Source: Escherichia coli | Lineage (GTDB): Bacteria > Pseudomonadota > Gammaproteobacteria > Enterobacterales > Enterobacteriaceae | Length of the DNA: 64,000 nucleotides | Reading direction: 5' to 3' (one strand) | NCBI RefSeq assembly: GCF_024223415.1 | Contig: NZ_CP100500.1 | Shown: positions 1 through 21,948 of the stretch, piece after piece | How positions within the stretch are numbered: position 1 is the first letter of the stretch | Layout: each line of letters starts with the position of its first letter | Program-made: the position numbers and the translations under genes | Notes under the pieces: generated by a model | Databases searched by the model: none | What the model was told of the DNA's origin: nothing | What the model saw: only the letters and a program-made list of their open reading frames with translations

Positions 1-363
<363 letters not shown>

Positions 364-459
364 GTTATGTGTTCTTTAAAAATAAGGAAATGTTTGAATT
401 TAGTTGGTAGATTGTTGATGTGGAATAAATTTGTTTAAAAACAGATATGTATGCTTAGT
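364..459 (+). promoter_or_regulatory. CRISPR leader (AT-rich, expected to hold the array promoter and integration-host-factor site)
   Basis: 96 bp AT-rich segment between cas2 stop and first repeat; position matches the E. coli type I-E leader. Promoter elements not pinpointed. Confidence 0.7.
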
Positions 460-1342
460 GTGTTCCCCGCGCCAGCGGGGATAAACCGGTCAAATCGGTT
501 ACCTTAACCTGTTGAATGTGGTGTTCCCCGCGCCAGCGGGGATAAACCGAACGGCTACGGCACCGAGGTGACAAACCAGATGTGTTCCCCGCGCCAGCGG
601 GGATAAACCGAACTCCAGGATATTGCAAACCGCATAGTGGATGTGTTCCCCGCGCCAGCGGGGATAAACCGCCGTTGCGCTGGCATCGGGTGTACCTGTT
701 GTGGTGTTCCCCGCGCCAGCGGGGATAAACCGCCGTTGCGCTGGCATCGGGTGTACCTGTTGTGGTGTTCCCCGCGCCAGCGGGGATAAACCGGGCTTAC
801 ACGCCACCATGGCATCAAGAACGATGTGTTCCCCGCGCCAGCGGGGATAAACCGATTACGACTTCCGCACGCACCCACCGTTTGTAGTGTTCCCCGCGCC
901 AGCGGGGATAAACCGTTGGGCTAGGAGGAAGAGCATCATTAACATGGGTGTTCCCCGCGCCAGCGGGGATAAACCTGAGGCGGCTAAACCGTCGCGCACA
1001 CGAGCGACGTGTTCCCCGCGCCAGCGGGGATAAACCGCGTACTGCTTACTCCGTCATCGATGTATGAGTGTGTTCCCCGCGCCAGCGGGGATAAACCGTA
1101 CGTGTCGCCGTTACAGATTTCAGTCTGTTAGTGTTCCCCGCGCCAGCGGGGATAAACCGGGCGTCCAGTGATGCTTTCTGGTGCTCGAATAGTGTTCCCC
1201 GCGCCAGCGGGGATAAACCGCACGATTTTATGTGCCGCGTTGAGGCGTGGGCGTGTTCCCCGCGCCAGCGGGGATAAACCGGGCGCACTGGATGCGATGA
1301 TGGATATCACTTAGAATTCCCCGCCCCTGCGGTAGAACACCC
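460..1342 (+). CRISPR. Type I-E CRISPR array: 14 canonical 29-bp repeats GTGTTCCCCGCGCCAGCGGGGATAAACCG, one degenerate terminal repeat, 14 spacers of 32 bp (13 unique)
   Basis: Repeats start at 460, 521, 582, 643, 704, 765, 826, 887, 948, 1009, 1070, 1131, 1192, 1253 with exact 61-bp period. Terminal degenerate repeat 1314-1342 (GAATTCCCCGCCCCTGCGGTAGAACACCC, about 19/29 identity). Repeat 9 ends in T (976) instead of G. Spacers 672-703 and 733-764 are identical. Confidence 0.98.
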
Positions 1343-1362
1343 AGCTCCCATTTTCCAACCCA

Positions 1363-2400
1363 TCAAGACGCCTTCGCCAGCTCCTTCACCAACGGTAGCA
1401 TTATCCGCATAACATCACGGCAGCGACGTTCTATTCTTCCAGGAAGTGCCTTATCAATATGCTGTTGATTATCCAGTCTTACGTCATGCCAGCTATTTCC
1501 CGCAGGGAATGCGGCTGTTTTTGCGCGTTGCTGATAACCATCCTTATTCCCAAGATTCCAGTTAGTCGCTTCCACCGAAAGTACAGCAATGCCCGCTTTG
1601 TCGAATATTTCTGCGTCATTACAACACCCAGTGCCTTTCGGATAATTTTTATTCAAACCCGGATTGGTCGTTGCGGCTATTCCGTGACTGCGCGCAATTG
1701 CCAGCGCCCTGTCGCGCGTTAATTTCCTTACTGCCTCAGGGGTTTTTACACCGCTGTTGAAATACAATTTATCGCCAACAATTAAGTTATCGAGATTAAT
1801 CACCAGCAGCGTATTTTTCTTTTCGGTGTCACTCATCCGCTTGAGTAAATTCTCAGCGCCTAATTTCCCTTCCTCTTCGCCGCTGGTCGCCACAAATCGA
1901 ATACCATACTCGGTAGGCGTATTTTTCAGGCGTTCTGCCAGTTCCAGCATGACACCTAAACCTGCGGCGTTATCATCCATTCCTTGTAACGTCAGCCCGC
2001 CGAGATTGGCATCGGCGTCAGCATCGCTCAGCGGGGCGTAAGTATCCAGATGCGCCATAATGATGATCTGCTGCGGCGCTTTGCCTTCATGAGCGGCAAT
2101 CACCGTACTTCCCGTCACGTTATGCCAGCTCTTACGATTATCGCGGGCGGTATAAATATACCGACTATTAAATGTCCGAATATCACTGCGATAACCCATT
2201 TGCTGAAACTGTTGGCGAATATAATCGGCAGATAACATTTCTGCAGGAGTTCCGGTCATGCGTCCCGGAAAGAAAGTAGCAATATGTCGTGCCTGAGTAT
2301 TAGCAAAATCGCCAGGTTTAGGTGACGAGGCGTGTACGGGGAGAATAAAGCATACGCCGAGCGCCAGGGCAGCGGTACGGTGGCGCAATGCGGAAAACAT
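1363..2400 (-). CDS. iap: Alkaline phosphatase isozyme conversion aminopeptidase
   Basis: 345 aa ORF, signal-peptide-like N-terminus, matches E. coli Iap; conserved position next to the CRISPR array. Confidence 0.92.
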   Translation of the reverse strand: MFSALRHRTAALALGVCFILPVHASSPKPGDFANTQARHIATFFPGRMTGTPAEMLSADYIRQQFQQMGYRSDIRTFNSRYIYTARDNRKSWHNVTGSTVIAAHEGKAPQQIIIMAHLDTYAPLSDADADANLGGLTLQGMDDNAAGLGVMLELAERLKNTPTEYGIRFVATSGEEEGKLGAENLLKRMSDTEKKNTLLVINLDNLIVGDKLYFNSGVKTPEAVRKLTRDRALAIARSHGIAATTNPGLNKNYPKGTGCCNDAEIFDKAGIAVLSVEATNWNLGNKDGYQQRAKTAAFPAGNSWHDVRLDNQQHIDKALPGRIERRCRDVMRIMLPLVKELAKAS

Positions 2401-2651
2401 AGTGAGTCCTTAAATACCATGCAAATTTTTTTACCGCCATAGTATGAAACTGCCGCTGCGCTAAAACAATTTCAAATCTTCCTAAACGCCCGAAATCCGG
2501 TGCCTTAAGCACTTTTTGATATTAGCTTTGCCAAATCGTTATTCCGTTAAGGAACTACTCATTCTAATTGGTAATTTCATTCGTTCTCTTACGCTCCCTA
2601 TAGTCGAAACATCTGATGGCAAGAAAATAGCGGTATTGCAAAGGAACGGTT

Positions 2652-3560
2652 ATGGATCAAAAACGACTTACCCACCTACGACAGCTGGAGGCGGAAAGCA
2701 TCCACATCATTCGCGAGGTGGCGGCAGAATTCTCAAATCCGGTGATGCTCTACTCTATCGGTAAAGATTCCAGCGTCATGCTGCATCTGGCGCGCAAGGC
2801 GTTTTATCCAGGTACGCTGCCTTTCCCGTTGCTGCATGTCGATACCGGCTGGAAATTCCGCGAGATGTATGAGTTCCGCGATCGTACGGCGAAAGCCTAC
2901 GGCTGCGAGCTGCTGGTGCATAAAAACCCGGAAGGCGTGGCGATGGGGATTAATCCATTCGTGCACGGCAGCGCGAAACATACCGATATTATGAAGACCG
3001 AAGGCCTGAAGCAGGCGCTGAATAAATACGGTTTTGATGCCGCCTTCGGTGGTGCGCGCCGCGACGAAGAGAAATCCCGTGCTAAAGAGCGAATCTATTC
3101 TTTCCGTGATCGCTTCCATCGCTGGGATCCGAAAAATCAGCGCCCGGAGCTGTGGCACAACTACAACGGGCAAATTAATAAAGGCGAAAGCATCCGCGTC
3201 TTCCCGCTCTCTAACTGGACCGAGCAGGATATCTGGCAATACATCTGGCTGGAAAATATCGACATTGTGCCGCTGTATCTCGCTGCGGAACGTCCGGTTC
3301 TGGAACGCGACGGTATGTTGATGATGATTGATGACAACCGTATCGACCTGCAACAGGGCGAAGTGATTAAAAAACGGATGGTGCGTTTCCGTACGCTGGG
3401 CTGCTGGCCGCTGACCGGTGCGGTGGAGTCAAATGCACAAACACTGCCGGAGATCATCGAAGAGATGCTGGTTTCCACCACCAGTGAACGTCAGGGCCGC
3501 GTGATTGACCGCGACCAGGCGGGATCCATGGAGCTGAAAAAACGTCAGGGGTATTTTTAA
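2652..3560 (+). CDS. cysD: Sulfate adenylyltransferase subunit 2
   Basis: 302 aa; PAPS reductase-like fold motifs; cysD-cysN-cysC operon order. Confidence 0.95.
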
Positions 3561-3561
3561 G

Positions 3562-4989
3562 ATGAACACCGCACTTGCACAACAAATCGCCAATGAAGGC
3601 GGCGTCGAAGCCTGGATGATTGCGCAACAACATAAAAGCCTGCTGCGTTTTCTGACCTGTGGTAGCGTCGATGACGGCAAAAGTACCCTGATTGGTCGTC
3701 TGCTGCACGATACCCGCCAAATCTATGAAGATCAGCTCTCATCGCTGCATAACGACAGTAAGCGTCACGGCACCCAGGGCGAAAAGCTGGATCTGGCTCT
3801 GCTGGTGGACGGCCTGCAAGCTGAGCGTGAACAGGGCATCACCATTGACGTGGCCTACCGCTATTTCTCTACCGAGAAGCGTAAATTTATTATCGCCGAC
3901 ACTCCAGGGCACGAGCAGTACACCCGCAATATGGCGACTGGCGCATCGACATGTGAACTGGCGATCTTACTGATCGATGCCCGTAAAGGCGTGTTCGATC
4001 AAACCCGTCGTCACAGTTTTATCTCCACACTGTTGGGGATCAAACATCTGGTCGTGGCGATCAACAAAATGGATCTGGTGGATTACAGTGAAGAGACGTT
4101 CACCCGTATTCGTGAAGATTATTTGACCTTTGCCGGGCAGCTGCCGGGTAATCTGGATATCCGCTTTGTGCCGCTCTCTGCACTGGAAGGCGACAACGTG
4201 GCTTCGCAAAGTGAAAGTATGCCGTGGTACAGCGGTCCGACACTGCTCGAAGTGCTGGAAACCGTGGAGATTCAGCGAGTGGTGGATGCCCAGCCAATGC
4301 GCTTCCCGGTGCAGTACGTTAACCGCCCAAATCTCGATTTTCGTGGCTACGCCGGAACGCTGGCATCCGGTCGCGTGGAAGTCGGGCAACGTGTAAAAGT
4401 GCTGCCCTCTGGTGTGGAATCAAACGTCGCGCGGATCGTGACTTTTGATGGTGATCGCGAAGAAGCCTTTGCCGGAGAAGCGATCACCCTGGTGCTGACG
4501 GATGAGATCGACATCAGCCGTGGCGATCTGCTGCTGGCGGCAGACGAAGCGTTACCAGCTGTGCAGAGCGCGTCGGTGGATGTGGTATGGATGGCGGAAC
4601 AGCCGCTTTCCCCGGGCCAGAGTTATGACATCAAAATTGCCGGTAAGAAGACGCGTGCTCGTGTTGATGGCATTCGTTATCAGGTTGATATTAATAACCT
4701 TACCCAACGCGAAGTTGAAAACCTGCCGCTGAACGGCATCGGCCTGGTGGATCTCACTTTTGACGAGCCACTGGTGTTAGATCGTTATCAGCAAAACCCG
4801 GTTACCGGTGGGCTGATTTTTATCGATCGCCTGAGCAATGTGACCGTAGGTGCCGGTATGGTGCATGAGCCAGTTAGCCAGGCAACTGCTGCGCCATCTG
4901 AATTTAGTGCATTCGAACTGGAATTGAATGCCCTGGTTCGCCGCCACTTTCCACACTGGGGCGCGCGCGATTTGCTGGGGGATAAATAA
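3562..4989 (+). CDS. cysN: Sulfate adenylyltransferase subunit 1 (GTPase)
   Basis: 475 aa; GTP-binding motifs GSVDDGKST and DTPGH; starts 2 bp after cysD stop. Confidence 0.95.
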
Positions 4990-5594
4990 TGGCGCTGCAT
5001 GACGAAAACGTCGTCTGGCATAGCCATCCGGTCACTGTGCAACAACGCGAGCTACACCACGGTCATCGTGGTGTAGTGCTGTGGTTTACCGGCCTCTCCG
5101 GGTCCGGTAAATCAACGGTCGCCGGGGCGCTGGAGGAGGCGTTACATAAACTCGGCGTCAGTACGTATCTGCTGGATGGCGACAATGTTCGCCACGGATT
5201 ATGTAGCGATCTCGGTTTTAGCGATGCCGATCGTAAAGAGAATATCCGTCGCGTCGGTGAAGTGGCGAATTTGATGGTTGAGGCCGGACTGGTGGTGCTG
5301 ACCGCATTTATCTCGCCACACCGCGCCGAACGCCAGATGGTTCGTGAACGCGTAGGAGAAGGGCGCTTTATCGAAGTGTTTGTCGATACGCCGCTGGCGA
5401 TTTGCGAAGCCCGCGATCCAAAAGGCTTATATAAGAAAGCGCGTGCCGGTGAACTGGGCAACTTTACGGGAATAGATTCCGTTTACGAAGCGCCTGAATC
5501 GGCAGAAATTCATCTCAATGGTGAACAATTAGTAACAAATTTGGTACAGCAATTATTAGATCTGTTGAGACAGAACGATATTATCAGATCCTGA
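4989..5594 (+). CDS. cysC: Adenylylsulfate (APS) kinase
   Basis: 201 aa; P-loop GLSGSGKST; start overlaps cysN stop. Confidence 0.95.
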
Positions 5595-5643
5595 GACACC
5601 ACCGGGTTTCCATGCCCGGTTCGTCAAAGTAACAGGATCAAAT

Positions 5644-5967
5644 ATGCGTAATAGCCATAACATTACACTAACAAATAACGACAGCCTTACTGAGGATGAA
5701 GAAACCACATGGTCACTGCCTGGTGCCGTGGTCGGTTTTATCTCCTGGTTATTTGCGCTGGCGATGCCGATGTTGATTTATGGCTCTAACACGCTGTTCT
5801 TCTTTATCTACACCTGGCCTTTCTTTCTGGCGCTGATGCCCGTTGCGGTAGTGGTGGGGATTGCGCTGCATTCATTGATGGACGGAAAGCTACGCTACAG
5901 TATTGTTTTCACCCTGGTGACAGTAGGCATTATGTTTGGCGCACTGTTTATGTGGCTGCTGGGCTAA
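5644..5967 (+). CDS. ygbE: Small inner-membrane protein YgbE (DUF3561)
   Basis: 107 aa hydrophobic protein; same length and synteny as K-12 YgbE. Confidence 0.85.
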   Translation: MRNSHNITLTNNDSLTEDEETTWSLPGAVVGFISWLFALAMPMLIYGSNTLFFFIYTWPFFLALMPVAVVVGIALHSLMDGKLRYSIVFTLVTVGIMFGALFMWLLG

Positions 5968-6160
5968 TTTGTACTTTCCCGTCTCCTCTGTTCATAATTC
6001 AAACCGTAACTAATAATGAGATTATGTTCTGCACGCCCTGGGTATACGTAACAATGGACAAATGTGGTACATTTGCCCGCGTTGTCGCGGTATCCCCAAC
6101 AGAGGATGTAGAGTCGTCTTCGGATGCATGGGATGATGATGCCGTTTTTCAGGGGGCAGG

Positions 6161-6472
6161 ATGGGTAAACTAACGCTGCTGTTGCTGGCTATTCTGGTCT
6201 GGCTACAGTATTCGCTGTGGTTCGGTAAGAACGGTATACATGACTATACCCGCGTCAATGATGATGTGGCGGCACAGCAAGCTACAAACGCGAAACTTAA
6301 AGCGCGAAACGATCAACTTTTTGCCGAAATTGACGATCTCAATGGCGGCCAGGAGGCGCTCGAAGAGCGTGCGCGTAATGAACTCAGCATGACCAGGCCG
6401 GGCGAAACTTTTTATCGTCTGGTGCCTGACGCGTCGAAGCGCGCACAGTCTGCGGGGCAAAACAATCGATAA
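6161..6472 (+). CDS. ftsB: Cell division protein FtsB
   Basis: 103 aa; N-terminal transmembrane segment then coiled coil; upstream of ispD as in K-12. Confidence 0.93.
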
Positions 6473-12541: not shown

Positions 12542-12949
12542 CTATGTGTTCATCATCTTGCGCACCAGCTGCACAAACAGCTCCTGCTCTTCTGCACTCA
12601 AACGCCCCAAAAATTCCTCATCCACGCTGTCACCAATCGGTATCGCCGCAGCAAGTATCTTTTCTCCTTCGGCAGTCAGCCAGACAAAGCGACGCCGCTT
12701 GTCAGCGGCATCATGTTCACGTCTGACTAAGCCACGATTCTCCATTCTTGCCAACATTTCTGCCAACGTTGCTTTGGTGCTGACTGCTGCTTCTATCAGT
12801 GCCACCTGTTCGATACCAGGCTTATCAGCAATGGCGCGCATCACCGCATACTGTGGTTTGGTCAGGTCAGGTAACTCGTGCTGCCAGCGAGCCGTGTGCT
12901 GCTGAAAAAGCTGTCGTAACTGATGGAACGCTTTATTTCGTAACGCCAT
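12542..12949 (-). CDS. MarR/SlyA-family transcriptional regulator
   Basis: ORF-track frame 12542-12982; Met at 12949 has a GGAG Shine-Dalgarno 7 nt upstream, giving about 135 aa. Winged-helix MarR-like sequence. Divergent from the decarboxylase operon. Confidence 0.8.
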   Translation of the reverse strand: MALRNKAFHQLRQLFQQHTARWQHELPDLTKPQYAVMRAIADKPGIEQVALIEAAVSTKATLAEMLARMENRGLVRREHDAADKRRRFVWLTAEGEKILAAAIPIGDSVDEEFLGRLSAEEQELFVQLVRKMMNT

Positions 12950-13064
12950 GTAAACTCCGGGCAAACTATCTGCCGCTATCATAGCGGTTTTTCAGTGACG
13001 AAGGGGATGTTGTTACTTTTCAGTGCTTGCCGCAATGAGAACAGAGGCGTATTTTAATAATAAT

Positions 13065-13078
13065 GTTCGTATACGAAC
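13065..13078. promoter_or_regulatory. Perfect 14-bp palindrome GTTCGTATACGAAC, candidate MarR-family operator
   Basis: Exact inverted repeat in the 113-bp divergent intergenic region, 18 bp upstream of the ecdB ATG. Confidence 0.5.
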
Positions 13079-13095
13079 AATTAAGAGAGTAAGCA

Positions 13096-13689
13096 ATGAA
13101 ACTGATCGTCGGGATGACAGGGGCTACCGGTGCGCCTCTTGGTGTGGCATTACTGCAAGCGCTGCGGGAGATGCCGAATGTCGAGACTCATCTGGTGATG
13201 TCGAAGTGGGCGAAAACCACCATTGAACTGGAAACGCCTTACAGCGCCCGCGATGTTGCTGCCCTCGCTGACTTCAGCCATAACCCGGCGGATCAGGCGG
13301 CGACCATCTCCTCAGGTTCCTTTCGTACCGACGGCATGATCGTTATTCCGTGCAGTATGAAAACGCTCGCCGGTATCCGCGCTGGTTACGCTGATGGCCT
13401 GGTAGGGCGCGCGGCGGACGTCGTGCTCAAAGAAGGCCGCAAACTGGTGCTGGTGCCGCGTGAAATGCCGCTTAGCACCATCCATCTCGAAAATATGCTC
13501 GCACTTTCACGCATGGGCGTGGCGATGGTGCCGCCGATGCCTGCCTTTTATAACCATCCCGAAACGGTAGATGACATTGTCCACCACGTGGTAGCCCGCG
13601 TGCTGGATCAATTTGGCCTTGAACATCCCTACGCCAGGCGCTGGCAAGGATTGCCGCAGGCCCGGAATTTTTCTCAGGAGAATGAATAA
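13096..13689 (+). CDS. ecdB: UbiX-like flavin prenyltransferase (Pad1 family), decarboxylase subunit B
   Basis: 197 aa; MKLIVGMTGATGA flavoprotein signature; TAATG overlap with the next gene. Confidence 0.85.
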   Translation: MKLIVGMTGATGAPLGVALLQALREMPNVETHLVMSKWAKTTIELETPYSARDVAALADFSHNPADQAATISSGSFRTDGMIVIPCSMKTLAGIRAGYADGLVGRAADVVLKEGRKLVLVPREMPLSTIHLENMLALSRMGVAMVPPMPAFYNHPETVDDIVHHVVARVLDQFGLEHPYARRWQGLPQARNFSQENE

Positions 13690-15116
13690 TGGCATTTGAT
13701 GATTTACGCAGCTTTTTACAGGCGCTTGATGACCACGGCCAGTTACTGAAAATCAGCGAAGAGGTGAACGCGGAACCGGATCTGGCTGCCGCTGCCAACG
13801 CCACCGGGCGTATCGGCGATGGTGCACCGGCGCTGTGGTTTGATAATATTCGCGGTTTTACCGATGCCCGCGTGGCGATGAATACCATCGGTTCCTGGCA
13901 GAACCACGCGATTTCCTTGGGCCTGCCGCCAAACACCCCGGTTAAAAAACAGATTGATGAGTTTATCCGCCGCTGGGATAACTTCCCGATCGCCCCGGAG
14001 CGCCGCGCCAATCCAGCCTGGGCGCAGAACACCGTCGATGGTGACGAGATTAATCTGTTCGATATCCTGCCGCTGTTTCGTTTAAACGACGGTGATGGCG
14101 GTTTCTATCTCGACAAAGCGTGCGTGGTTTCCCGCGATCCGCTCGACCCGGATAACTTCGGCAAGCAGAACGTCGGCATCTACCGCATGGAAGTGAAGGG
14201 CAAGCGTAAGCTCGGCCTGCAACCGGTGCCGATGCACGATATCGCCCTGCATCTGCATAAAGCAGAAGAGCGCGGTGAAGATCTACCGATTGCGATCACG
14301 CTCGGTAACGATCCGATCATCACGCTGATGGGCGCAACGCCACTGAAATACGATCAATCTGAGTACGAAATGGCAGGCGCGCTGCGTGAAAGCTCGTACC
14401 CGATCGCCACCGCCCCGCTGACCGGTTTTGATGTGCCGTGGGGTTCAGAAGTGATCCTCGAAGGGGTCATCGAAAGCCGTAAACGCGAAATCGAAGGGCC
14501 GTTCGGTGAGTTTACCGGACACTACTCCGGCGGGCGTAACATGACCGTGGTGCGCATCGATAAAGTCTCTTACCGCACCAGGCCGATTTTCGAATCGCTG
14601 TACCTCGGCATGCCGTGGACCGAAATCGACTACCTGATGGGGCCAGCCACCTGTGTGCCGCTGTATCAGCAACTGAAAGCCGAGTTCCCGGAAGTGCAGG
14701 CGGTAAACGCCATGTACACCCACGGCCTGCTGGCGATTATCTCCACCAAAAAACGCTACGGCGGCTTTGCCCGCGCGGTGGGCCTGCGTGCGATGACCAC
14801 GCCGCACGGTCTGGGCTACGTAAAGATGGTGATTATGGTCGATGAAGACGTTGACCCGTTCAACCTGCCGCAGGTGATGTGGGCGCTCTCCTCGAAAGTA
14901 AATCCGGCAGGGGATTTGGTGCAGTTGCCGAATATGTCCGTGCTGGAACTCGACCCTGGCTCAAGCCCGGCGGGGATCACCGACAAGCTGATTATCGACG
15001 CCACCACGCCTGTCGCCCCGGACAACTGTGGTCACTACAGCCAGCCGGTGGTGGATTTGCCGGAAACCAAAGCCTGGGCTGAAAAACTGACCGCTATGCT
15101 GGCTGCACGTAAATAA
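13689..15116 (+). CDS. ecdC: UbiD-family (prFMN-dependent) aromatic acid decarboxylase, subunit C
   Basis: 475 aa; UbiD-like; operonic with the UbiX-like gene. Confidence 0.85.
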   Translation: MAFDDLRSFLQALDDHGQLLKISEEVNAEPDLAAAANATGRIGDGAPALWFDNIRGFTDARVAMNTIGSWQNHAISLGLPPNTPVKKQIDEFIRRWDNFPIAPERRANPAWAQNTVDGDEINLFDILPLFRLNDGDGGFYLDKACVVSRDPLDPDNFGKQNVGIYRMEVKGKRKLGLQPVPMHDIALHLHKAEERGEDLPIAITLGNDPIITLMGATPLKYDQSEYEMAGALRESSYPIATAPLTGFDVPWGSEVILEGVIESRKREIEGPFGEFTGHYSGGRNMTVVRIDKVSYRTRPIFESLYLGMPWTEIDYLMGPATCVPLYQQLKAEFPEVQAVNAMYTHGLLAIISTKKRYGGFARAVGLRAMTTPHGLGYVKMVIMVDEDVDPFNLPQVMWALSSKVNPAGDLVQLPNMSVLELDPGSSPAGITDKLIIDATTPVAPDNCGHYSQPVVDLPETKAWAEKLTAMLAARK

Positions 15117-15126
15117 GGAGAACAAG

Positions 15127-15363
15127 ATGATTTGTCCACGTTGTGCCGATGAACAGATTGAAGTGATGGCGAAATCGCCGGTGAAAGATGTCTGGACGGT
15201 ATATCAGTGCCAGCATTGCCTTTATACCTGGCGCGATACCGAACCGCTGCGCCGTACCAGCCGCGAACATTACCCTGAAGCGTTCCGCATGACGCAGAAA
15301 GATATTGATGACGCGCCAATGGTGCCGAGCATCCCGCCGCTGCTGGCGGCAGATAAGCGCTAA
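15127..15363 (+). CDS. ecdD: Small decarboxylase subunit D (Cys-rich, zinc-ribbon-like)
   Basis: 78 aa with CPRC...CQHC motifs; 10 bp after ecdC stop. Confidence 0.75.
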   Translation: MICPRCADEQIEVMAKSPVKDVWTVYQCQHCLYTWRDTEPLRRTSREHYPEAFRMTQKDIDDAPMVPSIPPLLAADKR

Positions 15364-18727: not shown

Positions 18728-18971
18728 GGGGTTATGTCCGGTTCCCTGATATTAAATGGGGTGTGATGGTTTTTATTTTCGTTGTAATCACATAAGGCGC
18801 ACATGATACCGGAGTTAATCATTTCAGGGGAAGAAGCGAACGGCGAGTTCTTGATGCTGGTTCCGGGAAAGATGCTGTTTTGCAGCTTTTGCGTGATGCT
18901 TATGAAGCAAGTACGCAAAATTGCGTCGGTTGAATAAACCTCCTCCTTCAGAGCCATAGTCCCCTTTGAAA

Positions 18972-19013: not shown

Positions 19014-19358
19014 ATGTCCGGCAAGCGTATCTCTCGTGAAAAACTGACGATTAAAAAAATGATCGATCTTTATCAAGCGAAATGCCCGCAGGCGTCAGCG
19101 GAGCCGGAGCATTACGACGCGCTGTTTGCCTACGCGCAAAAGCGGCTGGATAAATGTGTGTTCGGCGAAGAGAAACCAGCCTGTAAGCAGTGTCCGGTGC
19201 ACTGTTACCAGCCTGCAAAGCGTGAAGAGATGAAACAGATTATGCGTTGGGCCGGGCCGAGAATGCTGTGGCGTCATCCGATCTTAACCGTGCGTCATCT
19301 CATCGATGACAAGCGTCCGGTGCCGGAGTTGCCAGAAAAATATCGTCCAAAGAAATAA
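19014..19358 (+). CDS. ygbA: Uncharacterised Cys-rich protein YgbA (nitric-oxide-inducible)
   Basis: 114 aa; MSGKRISREKLTIKKMIDLYQAKCP matches YgbA. Confidence 0.9.
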   Translation: MSGKRISREKLTIKKMIDLYQAKCPQASAEPEHYDALFAYAQKRLDKCVFGEEKPACKQCPVHCYQPAKREEMKQIMRWAGPRMLWRHPILTVRHLIDDKRPVPELPEKYRPKK

Positions 19359-19362
19359 ATCT

Positions 19363-19385
19363 GCCGGAGAGCCATACTCTCCGGC
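19363..19385. terminator. Bidirectional hairpin terminator between convergent ygbA and the mop gene
   Basis: GCCGGAGAG-ccata-CTCTCCGGC, 9-bp perfect stem, 4 bp after ygbA stop and 12 bp after mop stop. Confidence 0.7.
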
Positions 19386-19396
19386 AAATAAGGCGT

Positions 19397-19825
19397 TTAC
19401 GCTTTGGTGGCAATCAGGATGGCTGATGCTTTGATCAATGCAATAACGCGTGAGCCAGTGGTGAGTTTCATTTCATCCTGACTTTCATTTGTTACCACTG
19501 CCACAATTTCAAAACCCGCATCCGTTTTGATATGGACAGTGGCGTTCACTGCGCCTTCGGTGATTGTCGACACGCTGCCAGCAAACTGGTTGCGAGCAGA
19601 GAATTTCAGTCCACAGTCTTCCGTTGCCAGCGTTACCCACGGGGCTTTAATCAGGGCAATCGCTTCTTTCCCTTTCGCCAGACCCAGAGCCTGCTGGCTG
19701 CTGTGAGTCACAATTGCCACCAGCTTTGCACCACCTGCCAGCGTCAGTTCTAATTCGTCATTCACCGCGCCCATTGCTACTGCGCTAACTGTTCCGGTTA
19801 ATTGATTTCTTGCTGAAACTGCCAT
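19397..19825 (-). CDS. Two-domain Mop/TOBE molybdate-binding protein (molbindin)
   Basis: 142 aa from ATG 19825 with AAAGGAGG Shine-Dalgarno 5 nt upstream. Two tandem ~70-aa halves each beginning SARNQ(L/F)(T/A)G(T/S)VS. 44 bp downstream of fhlA stop, same strand. Confidence 0.85.
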   Translation of the reverse strand: MAVSARNQLTGTVSAVAMGAVNDELELTLAGGAKLVAIVTHSSQQALGLAKGKEAIALIKAPWVTLATEDCGLKFSARNQFAGSVSTITEGAVNATVHIKTDAGFEIVAVVTNESQDEMKLTTGSRVIALIKASAILIATKA

Positions 19826-19869
19826 ACTGCCTCCTTTCATTGAATGTTGATCGAGTATAACCACATCTG

Positions 19870-21948
19870 TTAAATCAATGCCGATTTATCAATTCCCAGT
19901 CGCTTCATCCGTGACAGCAGGGTCGTGCGTTTCAGCCCCAGACGTTGCGCAGCGCCTTTAGGCCCGGCAACCACGCCGTTAGTTTCTTTCAGCACGCGAA
20001 CAATCAACTGATATTCATCTTCGCCCTCCTGAGCGACAACCGTTGCGGCAGGCGGCGTTTCAGGCTCCGGTAAAGCAATATCTGGCAATGACAGCTGCAG
20101 CACGTTGCCGCGTGTTAGCAATACCGCGCGCTCAATGACGTTTTCCAGTTCGCGTACGTTACCCGGCCACTCCATATTGCTCAAGGTGCGCAACGTCTCG
20201 GCAGGAATGCTGTCGATATTGCGCCCCAGACGACGGGCAATTTTGAAGGTAAAGGCTTTCGCCAGCAGCGGAATATCTTCCGGACGCTCGCGTAGTGGCG
20301 GAAGGTGAATCGGGAATACGTTCAGGCGGTAATAGAGATCGCTACGGAACTCACGGTCGGCGACCATTTTTTTCAGATCGCGGTTAGTCGCGGCGATTAG
20401 ACGCACGTCCGTCTGAATGATTTTGTTGCTGCCGAGGCGTTCAAACTCCTGTTCCTGCAATACACGCAGCAACTTCGGCTGTAACTCCAGTGGCATATCG
20501 CCCACTTCGTCGAGGAACAGGGAGCTTTTATCCGCCAGTTCAAAACGACCAATGCGCTGGGCGCTGGCACCAGTAAAAGCCCCACGTTCATGACCAAACA
20601 GATCGCTCTCCAGCAATCCGGCAGGCATCGCCGCGCAGTTCATTTTGACCATGCGGCGATTATTACGCCCACTGAGATTATGGATAGCACGGGCAATCAG
20701 CTCTTTACCCGTGCCAGTTTCACCGAGGATCAGCACGGTACTGTCACTTTGCGCCACCATTTCAACTTGTTTAAGCACGCTGTACATGGCTTCGCTGCGG
20801 CCAATAATCTCGCCAAATTCACTATCAACATTGTTGAGCTGCTCGGTCAGGGCGAGGTTTTCATCAACCAGCCGTTCTTTCAGACGATGGATTTCCTGAT
20901 AGGCGAGGGCGTTATCGACAGCGATTGCCACACGTTCGGCAATCTGGCGCAGTAAATTCAGATTGGTAGTGGTAAACACTTTCTCTTCACATTGCGCCAG
21001 TTTCAGCACGCCCAGCATGGTGTCGCCAGACATCAGCGGTAACAGGCACAAGGTTTGAATCTGGTTGCCCCAGGTGTCGAACAACATGCGTTCGTAGGGG
21101 GCTAAATTATCTCGTTCGTGGAGATTGATCAGCAGCATCTCTTTACTTTTGAACACGCGTTCGGTGAGGGTTCCGGCTTCATCGACTTCGCTCTGTTCGT
21201 GGGCGGGATGTTGTTTATCAAGATAGTGAGTGGAGTAGATGTTGAGTTTGTTTTTACGGTGGCTGCGTAAGACAATGCTGATATCGTCAATGTCGAAATA
21301 GTAATGGATTTCTTTGGCGACTTCGCTGACCAGTTCGTCCATATCCAGGCGGGAAAGCACCGCGTTGGTGATGGCGACCAGGATGCGGAAGTTATCGCGT
21401 TCCCGGCATAACAACTCATAGTCGACATTGTTAACGACGCGACTCTGGATTTGTTCGGTGACGACAGAAACGATCTGCGTAAATGTTTGCAGACGATTGA
21501 ACTCTTTTTCGCTCCAGGGGCGATCGTCATAACGAATAAATTCACAGCCACCAAAAATATGCCCTTCCGCCGCCAGTGGCATCAGGCAATAGTGACCAAA
21601 TTTGGGGTATAGCCCACCTGCGGCCAGCTGCGGCCAGGTTTCACAAAATTCTTCGTAACTGCAATGCAGCGTATCAGGGCGCGACAAAATGCTGCGTACC
21701 GGACCGTGTGCCAGAACAGTTTCGTCTTCATATTTAATGGGGGTGTCTTTTTCACGCGATGCGTAATAAGACGCACGTTGAGTCTGCGCTTGCCACAACA
21801 CAATAGCCGCGTTGTCGGCGAGCGCAGAACGCTTTACCAGTTGCGAAAGAGCCTCACACAGCGAGGCCAGATCGGGCTGCTGCAATAGTGTCCGAGTGAT
21901 GTCGAACAACCCTTGCTGTCCGAGATCACTCATCGGTGTATATGACAT
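19870..21948 (-). CDS. fhlA: Formate hydrogenlyase transcriptional activator FhlA (sigma54-dependent)
   Basis: Known N-terminus MSYTPMSDLGQQ gives 692 aa; ORF-track frame extends to an upstream ATG at 21984. AAA+ GETGTGKE and GAFTGA motifs. Confidence 0.96.
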   Translation of the reverse strand: MSYTPMSDLGQQGLFDITRTLLQQPDLASLCEALSQLVKRSALADNAAIVLWQAQTQRASYYASREKDTPIKYEDETVLAHGPVRSILSRPDTLHCSYEEFCETWPQLAAGGLYPKFGHYCLMPLAAEGHIFGGCEFIRYDDRPWSEKEFNRLQTFTQIVSVVTEQIQSRVVNNVDYELLCRERDNFRILVAITNAVLSRLDMDELVSEVAKEIHYYFDIDDISIVLRSHRKNKLNIYSTHYLDKQHPAHEQSEVDEAGTLTERVFKSKEMLLINLHERDNLAPYERMLFDTWGNQIQTLCLLPLMSGDTMLGVLKLAQCEEKVFTTTNLNLLRQIAERVAIAVDNALAYQEIHRLKERLVDENLALTEQLNNVDSEFGEIIGRSEAMYSVLKQVEMVAQSDSTVLILGETGTGKELIARAIHNLSGRNNRRMVKMNCAAMPAGLLESDLFGHERGAFTGASAQRIGRFELADKSSLFLDEVGDMPLELQPKLLRVLQEQEFERLGSNKIIQTDVRLIAATNRDLKKMVADREFRSDLYYRLNVFPIHLPPLRERPEDIPLLAKAFTFKIARRLGRNIDSIPAETLRTLSNMEWPGNVRELENVIERAVLLTRGNVLQLSLPDIALPEPETPPAATVVAQEGEDEYQLIVRVLKETNGVVAGPKGAAQRLGLKRTTLLSRMKRLGIDKSALI

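Follow-up and report, generated by a model that had tools for sequence, protein, structure and literature searches.

The mop Locus

Between fhlA, which encodes the sigma-54 activator of the formate hydrogenlyase (FHL) regulon, and its convergent neighbour ygbA, the stretch of Escherichia coli DNA analysed here (64,000 nucleotides of contig NZ_CP100500.1, assembly GCF_024223415.1, hereafter the window) carries a small gene that will be called mop. A preliminary description, made from the letters alone, had placed at this site a 142-amino acid (aa) open reading frame (ORF) with a strong Shine-Dalgarno sequence, 44 bp after fhlA and on the same strand, and this is what the locus holds (Table 1). 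The frame opens with an ATG at 19825 and closes with a stop codon at 19397-19399 on the minus strand, spanning 142 codons; the program-made ORF list prolongs it to an upstream GTG, which gives 155 aa. The stop codon of fhlA ends at 19870, so that 44 nucleotides (nt) separate the two genes, and on the other side 38 nt lie between the mop stop and the end of ygbA at 19358. In RefSeq the same 429-nt coding sequence (CDS) is annotated identically, as WP_024257838.1, "TOBE domain-containing protein", the genome used for this comparison being 100% identical to the window across the 511 bp of the mop segment (19359-19869). A GGAGG or GGAGA core is found at the same distance from the mop start in nearly all of 45 loci, across genera.

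Table 1. Position of mop, its protein domains and the adjoining features in the window.
Feature	Position	Strand	Remarks
ygbA, convergent neighbour	19014..19358	+	114 aa here, 117 aa in K-12
Intrinsic terminator hairpin after mop	19359..19389	-	14-bp stem, T-rich tail TTATTTCTTT
mop CDS, ModG-type di-Mop molbindin	19397..19825	-	142 aa and stop; ORF, RefSeq annotation, homology, predicted fold, dN/dS
Mop/TOBE domain 2	19400..19609	-	residues 73-142; S76, R78, A92-V93-N94, T112, S115, K132, A133
Mop/TOBE domain 1	19616..19825	-	residues 1-70; S4, R6, A20-V21-N22, T40, S43, K60, A61
fhlA-mop spacer	19826..19869	-	44 nt, without terminator-like site; holds the GGYTATAMT box
Shine-Dalgarno GGAGG	19830..19834	-	4 nt ahead of the mop ATG
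fhlA, sigma-54 activator of the FHL regulon	19870..21948	-	immediately upstream of mop

The exact protein sequence occurs on at least 1000 contigs, and the identical protein goes in the databases under the names "TOBE domain-containing protein", "molybdopterin-binding protein", "molybdenum-pterin-binding protein" and "transporter". mop is a real gene for a small two-domain protein, which has already been annotated generically in thousands of genomes. A full-text literature search, whose coverage excludes most subscription journals, found no paper on mop, on an fhlA-linked Mop protein or on the K-12 deletion described below.

The frame is 142 aa long and uninterrupted in 46 of 48 related loci, which together with the window copy gives 47 sequences; the other two loci hold a 143-aa distant homologue and a frameshifted copy in Enterobacter sp. 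EA-1. Pairwise ratios of nonsynonymous to synonymous substitution rates (dN/dS) relative to the window copy range from 0.035 to 0.11, and the gene is under strong purifying selection. The Enterobacter sp. EA-1 locus (L045, 3969-6321) combines a frameshifted mop, with a frame of 113 aa, and a fragmented fhlA, both probably being pseudogenes or assembly errors.

A ModG-Type Di-Mop Protein

The protein is built from two tandem halves that share 29 identical residues out of 70 and begin with a repeated motif, which reads SARNQLTGTVS in the first half (residues 4-14) and SARNQFAGSVS in the second (residues 76-86). This repeat had been read as the architecture of a stand-alone two-domain Mop/TOBE protein, and the profile check, once run, bore the reading out. 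Pfam PF03459 (TOBE) matches twice (residues 4-66, E 5.6e-17; residues 76-137, E 6.2e-16), these being the only significant Pfam matches, with no DNA-binding or ATPase domain, and the NCBIfam model TIGR00638 (Mop) reaches 139.9 bits in two stretches, against a cutoff of 55. The ModE equivalog model NF007957 gives 87.1 bits against a cutoff of 369, with a match limited to model positions 124-261, that is, to the di-Mop part only, and the ModC/WtpC equivalog models give 47-48 bits against cutoffs of 285-440.

In a phmmer search of all PDB sequences the best match was ModG of Azotobacter vinelandii (1h9j, residues 1-140, E 1.2e-32), followed by the di-Mop region of E. coli ModE (about 1e-15) and by the single-domain proteins Tub, MopII and Mop (1e-9 to 1e-5). 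An AlphaFold2 monomer model, built with 27 homologues, has a mean predicted local distance difference test score (pLDDT) of 96.3. When this model was compared with the PDB by Foldseek, three ModG entries came out on top (template modelling score, TM, 0.94-0.95; root mean square deviation, rmsd, 1.3-1.4 A; 48% identity) and the ModE di-Mop region came next (TM 0.88-0.90).

The residues expected to contact the ligand can be read from the structure of Tub, in which the type-1 sites, on the threefold axis, are formed by the backbone of Ala20-Val21-Asn22 and the type-2 sites by Ser4, Arg6, Lys60 and Ala61 of one chain together with Ser40 of the adjacent chain (PMC11980592). Alignments to Tub, MopII and ModG map these contacts to identical residue numbers in domain 1 (plus S43) and to positions 72 residues further on in domain 2, with Tub Ser40 corresponding to Thr40 and Thr112. 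The SARNQ, GAVN, TxxS and KA motifs are kept in both halves, and the ligand positions vary little or not at all among 47 orthologues. Because both halves keep their ligand sets as in ModG, unlike what is seen in ModE, sequence and modelled fold together identify the protein as a ModG-type di-Mop molbindin.

The likeness to ModG (1h9j, 1h9k, 1h9m) extends to the whole protein: both consist of two Mop domains only (142 aa here, 141-145 aa in ModG), with 48% identity over the full length, a TM of 0.95 and an rmsd of 1.3 A relative to the predicted fold, and SARN, GAVN, TxxS and KA present in both halves. ModG is a homotrimer with eight oxyanion sites (PMC11980592), whereas for the Mop protein only a monomer was modelled and the stoichiometry is taken from ModG. 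A role in nitrogenase cofactor supply has been reported for ModG (PMC11980592); since E. coli, in contrast, has no nitrogenase, that role does not apply here. The C-terminal part of E. coli ModE (1h9r, 1h9s, 1o7l, 1b9m) shares the tandem Mop fold, with 33-35% identity, and the ligand motifs also recur in its first Mop domain. ModE differs in its N-terminal winged-helix DNA-binding domain, which is absent from the Mop protein, and in its second Mop domain, from which the SARN and K motifs, kept in both halves of the Mop protein, have disappeared (NADNQ, Lys missing). Each half also aligns end to end, over about 70 aa, with the single-domain molbindins (MopII of Clostridium pasteurianum, 1gug; Mop of Sporomusa ovata, 1fr3; Tub of Eubacterium limosum, 9beb) at 30-40% identity and with ligand numbering identical to that of Tub; these form hexamers, whereas here two domains are fused and a trimer would be the equivalent particle. 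To the TOBE domain of the ModC/WtpC ATPases there is only a weak domain-level similarity (3d31, E 4e-4), the ATPase domain itself being missing and the scores lying far under the equivalog cutoffs.

An Ancestral Gene Deleted in the K-12 Lineage

The preliminary description had credited K-12 with a short fhlA-ygbA spacer and no gene, and MG1655 indeed has no mop: a spacer of 36 nt lies between the ends of its fhlA CDS (locus position 6417) and its ygbA CDS (6454). That spacer is filled by a hairpin homologous to the one that follows mop in the window, located directly after fhlA and distinguished by a compensatory C-G to G-C stem change. Between K-12 and the window, divergence starts exactly at the ygbA stop, for which reason K-12 YgbA is 3 residues longer, and the divergent stretch reaches to 4 nt past the fhlA stop.

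The same description had presented mop as inserted between the two genes, and here the polarity must be reversed. A scan of one genome per species yielded 49 mop loci, and tblastn with the FhlA, YgbA and MutS proteins of the window placed fhlA directly upstream of mop on the same strand in 36 of the 41 loci from Enterobacteriaceae, usually with ygbA downstream. The arrangement is found in E. albertii, a cryptic Escherichia clade, Citrobacter, Raoultella, Klebsiella, Kluyvera, Pluralibacter, Yokenella, Lelliottia, Enterobacter and Kosakonia, and E. fergusonii shows the order hypA-E, fhlA, mop, ygbA; the fhlA-mop-ygbA synteny thus covers at least 10 genera, including all the Escherichia outgroups examined. 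The synonymous divergence (dS) of mop, 0.36 relative to E. albertii and 0.22 relative to the cryptic clade, is comparable with that of its neighbours in the same two comparisons (fhlA, 0.60 and 0.19; ygbA, 0.33 and 0.40; mutS, 0.53 and 0.31), and its GC content (0.506) is close to theirs (0.51-0.52). The search for flanking repeats around mop returned only 8-nt chance matches and no target-site duplication, and no mobility genes, whether insertion sequence (IS) or integrase, and no tRNA are annotated nearby. Given this synteny, the neighbour-like dS, the normal GC content and the lack of repeats and mobility genes, the comparisons indicate that mop is ancestral to the Enterobacteriaceae at this position and that the K-12 lineage lost it cleanly, by a deletion of about 470 bp which kept the terminator.

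A recent arrival of mop between fhlA and ygbA by horizontal transfer in some E. coli lineages would account for its variable presence in the species, in 35% of the complete genomes, and could call on the accessory context of some Salmonella homologues, which adjoin an IS21 fragment. The interval between fhlA and mutS is moreover a known integration site, and Salmonella pathogenicity island 1 (SPI-1) is located there. Against such an event stand the synteny, dS, GC and lack of insertion marks given above, together with the homologous terminator of both alleles and the single uniform junction of the genomes without mop, and we regard it as very improbable. How the deletion arose was approached through recombination between direct repeats, but the only repeat that brackets the gene is the 8-mer GCCATACT, at 19371 and 19821, which is absent from the K-12 junction, and this route was rejected. 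The K-12 hairpin with its GGCATACT tail (L002, 6418-6453) is closer to the terminator that follows mop in Citrobacter amalonaticus (L010, 6430-6475) than to the one found in Escherichia that have mop. Another terminator variant may be the source of the K-12-type allele, perhaps with recombination close to mutS as the route.

Among 5426 complete E. coli genomes, 1892 (about 35%) carry mop, always as a single chromosomal copy; the nucleotide match is full-length in 1889 of them and partial in 3, and the copies are 95-100% identical, except for one at 80-90%. The K-12-type junction was found, at full length and with at least 97.7% identity, in 3505 genomes (about 65%), so that the two alleles together account for 5397 genomes (99.5%). 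As far as reference strains could be recognised in the match lists, the carriers include NU14, E2348/69, ATCC 25922 and one ST648 strain, and the strains with the deletion allele include K-12, BL21 and O157:H7. ATCC 25922, NU14 and E2348/69 are strains that we take to belong to phylogroup B2, and the pattern would presumably fit a gene kept in phylogroups B2 and F and lost in A and E.

Transcription

The hairpin that follows mop has a predicted folding energy of -23.1 kcal/mol (z -5.0 relative to shuffled sequences) and is also present in E. albertii and in the cryptic Escherichia clade. It had been described as a bidirectional terminator shared with ygbA, of which one half holds: the hairpin does lie between the two stop codons, but the terminator scan calls it on the minus strand only, where the TTATTTCTTT tail is found. 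Because the T-rich tail exists on that strand only, the hairpin is a canonical terminator for mop/fhlA alone, and on the ygbA side the shared hairpin lacks a U-tract. It is also the sole terminator-like site on the minus strand from the fhlA start to ygbA, the scan having found none in the gap between fhlA and mop. The 44-nt spacing, the absence of an intervening terminator, the strong ribosome-binding site of mop itself and the operon terminator placed after it suggest that the hyp-fhlA transcription unit most likely ends with mop, which would be co-transcribed with fhlA.

No match to a sigma-70 or sigma-54 promoter consensus was found in the 44-nt spacer. The spacer does contain a box, GGTTATACT, at 19854-19862 on the minus strand, about 25 nt ahead of the Shine-Dalgarno sequence, which reappears as GGCTATACT or GGCTATAAA in Citrobacter, Kluyvera, Pluralibacter and others. 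The resulting consensus, GGYTATAMT, is common to several genera, Escherichia, Citrobacter, Kluyvera and Pluralibacter among them, as judged by eye and without formal alignment from the upstream regions of 45 loci. By the same kind of inspection it fits neither the -24/-12 (sigma-54) nor the extended -10 consensus cleanly, and it may be the -10 element of an internal promoter. Rfam gave no match at E <= 1, the molybdenum cofactor (Moco) riboswitch included, between 18600 and 20200 of the window, and no match at the gathering score in ten related loci.

Linkage to fhlA and the FHL Cluster

Several genomes have kept mop after losing the genes to which it is usually linked. In Phytobacter diazotrophicus, P. 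ursingii and Kosakonia sp. S29 (L035, L040 and L047, about 1-6429) the order is ascB, hycI, hypA-E, mop and ygbA, with fhlA and hycA-H gone and mop placed after hypE, and in Raoultella sp. BIGb0138 and Enterobacter sp. BIGb0383 the entire hyc-hyp-fhlA block is gone and mop follows ascB. Serratia, Cedecea and Edwardsiella have a 68-72% identical orthologue that stands alone amid unrelated genes, and some Salmonella enterica carry an 88% identical mop in an accessory region unlinked to fhlA (L054, 2174-6429; L055, 198-4453). In all these loci the mop frame and the ligand residues are intact. The linkage of mop to fhlA is strong but does not amount to an obligate functional coupling. A FhlA-specific role is weakened, since genomes without fhlA, or without the hyc-hyp-fhlA cluster as a whole, still have an intact mop, and the pattern favours a part in general molybdate handling. 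The functional link to the molybdenum-dependent FHL regulon that the preliminary description had proposed stays a plausible hypothesis by virtue of the conserved linkage, and loses weight through the retention of mop in these genomes.

Some details of these loci may be added. The erosion of the FHL locus appears to have been independent in Phytobacter/Kosakonia sp. S29, in Raoultella sp. BIGb0138 and in Enterobacter sp. BIGb0383: only hycI fragments remain between ascB and mop in the Raoultella strain (L014, 5578-5905), and a toxin-antitoxin-like gene pair occupies this place in the Enterobacter strain (L030). In Salmonella, a YedY/YedZ-like molybdoenzyme pair, made up of a YedY-like Oxidored_molyb gene and a gene for cytochrome b, is found at 1-3 kb from mop; an IstB_IS21 fragment adjoins mop in L055, and fimbrial usher genes are found downstream. 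The Salmonella gene looks like a transferred copy beside another molybdoenzyme.

Proposed Function and Alternatives

We consider it likely that mop encodes a cytoplasmic, ModG-type buffer of molybdate or tungstate which is produced from the hyp-fhlA unit, is ancestral and was deleted in K-12. By homology with ModG, three subunits would assemble into a pseudo-hexamer of six Mop domains, and this trimer would have room for up to eight oxyanions, molybdate or tungstate, at the domain interfaces: two at threefold-axis sites formed by the GAVN loops and six at buried interface sites formed by the S-A-R, T-x-x-S and K-A motifs, both the oligomer and the sites being modelled on the structures of ModG, Mop and Tub (PMC11980592). 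Read-through from the hyp and fhlA promoters would lead to production of the protein under anaerobiosis with formate, while the molybdenum- and selenium-dependent formate dehydrogenase H (FDH-H) is being built, and the protein would buffer or store cytoplasmic molybdate for cofactor synthesis. The molybdenum status of the cell matters to the FHL regulon, because full expression of fdhF and hyc requires ModE with molybdate in addition to FhlA and formate (PMC3149613).

A number of observations weigh against this proposal, or against parts of it. mop is dispensable, two thirds of E. coli being without it and the FHL of K-12 being active regardless. Its setting differs from that of modG, which lies beside modEABC, whereas mop comes after fhlA in the hyp-fhlA unit. 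The 300 nt ahead of mop yielded no ModE-box-like pattern in 45 loci when searched with the regular expressions TAYAT-N6-8-WAYAT and TATAT-N4-10-ATATA, which are crude patterns and not a weight matrix; this further difference from ModG bears on the context of the system and not on the protein family. We infer the co-transcription of fhlA and mop from their arrangement, and the GGYTATAMT box of the spacer could mark a separate promoter for mop. The trimer, its stoichiometry, its affinity and its preference for molybdenum or tungsten go beyond what a sequence can tell. The biochemical assignment of the protein can be considered safe on sequence grounds, and the physiological role is put forward as a proposal.

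A more specialised molbindin can be envisaged, dedicated to FHL maturation and regulation and produced from the hyp-fhlA transcript, which would deliver molybdate for the synthesis of the Moco of FDH-H or signal molybdenum status to FhlA/ModE, the molybdenum dependence of FHL expression in K-12 being then a degenerate form of an ancestral enterobacterial circuit that was lost there with the deletion; this is conceivable but unlikely. As a regulatory partner, a role that we find distinctly unlikely, the Mop protein would sense molybdate and, instead of simply storing it, would act on FhlA, or on ModE by forming mixed di-Mop oligomers with it, and so tune the transcription of hyc, hyp and fdhF to the molybdenum supply. 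The tight linkage to fhlA, conserved in 36 of 41 loci from Enterobacteriaceae, would agree with such a sensor, as would the fold and the 33-35% identity shared with the molybdate-sensing di-Mop domain of ModE, and the route by which molybdate acts on hyc and fdhF through ModE is only partly understood (PMC3149613). Against such a sensor stand Phytobacter and Kosakonia sp. S29, where mop lies directly after hypE with its ligand residues conserved and no fhlA, Raoultella sp. BIGb0138 and Enterobacter sp. BIGb0383, where mop persists after ascB without the hyc-hyp-fhlA cluster, and the lack of linkage between mop and fhlA in Serratia, Cedecea, Edwardsiella and Salmonella. The protein has no DNA-binding domain (87 bits with the ModE model, far from the 369-bit cutoff), and K-12 displays molybdenum-dependent hyc regulation without mop.

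The buffer proposed here might also serve tungstate in the first place, as a "TudG" that sequesters this anion and so guards molybdoenzymes from mis-metallation, or that supplies a tungsten enzyme. Mop/TOBE sites take both oxyanions, the ModE di-Mop region (1h9r) and MopII (1gug) having been crystallised with tungstate; Tub binds both anions comparably in vitro, and the ModG-like architecture occurs in many gut species predicted to use tungsten (PMC11980592). Sequence does not distinguish a molybdate site from a tungstate site, but the nearest characterised relative (48% identity) is the molybdate protein ModG and the genomic neighbours serve a molybdoenzyme pathway. To our knowledge, E. coli has neither TupABC nor established tungstoenzymes, and a dedicated tungstate binder seems quite improbable. 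That mop could be a decaying remnant without function is hardly credible: K-12 dispenses with it, the Enterobacter sp. EA-1 copy is frameshifted and three E. coli genomes hold partial matches, but the dN/dS range of 0.035-0.11, the 142-aa frame kept in 47 sequences, the 1889 full-length matches in E. coli and the conservation of both the Shine-Dalgarno site and the ligand residues are opposed to decay.

Other Features of the Window

Between rpoS and pphB (12542-15363) the window carries a MarR-family regulator gene (12542-12949, minus strand) and the genes for subunits B, C and D of a non-oxidative hydroxyarylic acid decarboxylase (about 13096-15363, plus strand), unlike K-12, in which ygbI and its neighbours adjoin pphB. 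This segment is presumably the known mutS-rpoS polymorphic region, and the window holds two K-12-discordant segments flanking mutS. A type I-E array of clustered regularly interspaced short palindromic repeats (CRISPR) lies at 460-1281, with adjoining cas2e and cas1e, beside iap, these coordinates being mapped from the genome whose identity to the window was confirmed over the 511 bp of the mop segment only. In the intergenic region between mutS and ygbA there is an ORF of 44 aa (18803-18937, plus strand), annotated in RefSeq as the hypothetical protein WP_000611926.1.

Implications

The gain in knowledge is modest, in that much is known of the protein family and its chemistry, and the gene already had a generic annotation. 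Its interest lies in the strains concerned: FHL regulation and molybdenum homeostasis have been studied largely in K-12 derivatives (MC4100) and B strains (BL21(DE3)) (PMC3149613), and both K-12 and BL21 carry the deletion allele, whereas about one third of the complete E. coli genomes and most of the other Enterobacteriaceae examined hold an additional predicted cytoplasmic molybdate-binding protein. If the Mop protein does buffer molybdate, the strains that carry it may handle molybdenum limitation or tungstate differently, which would matter for how they respire anaerobically and metabolise formate in the gut and the urinary tract.

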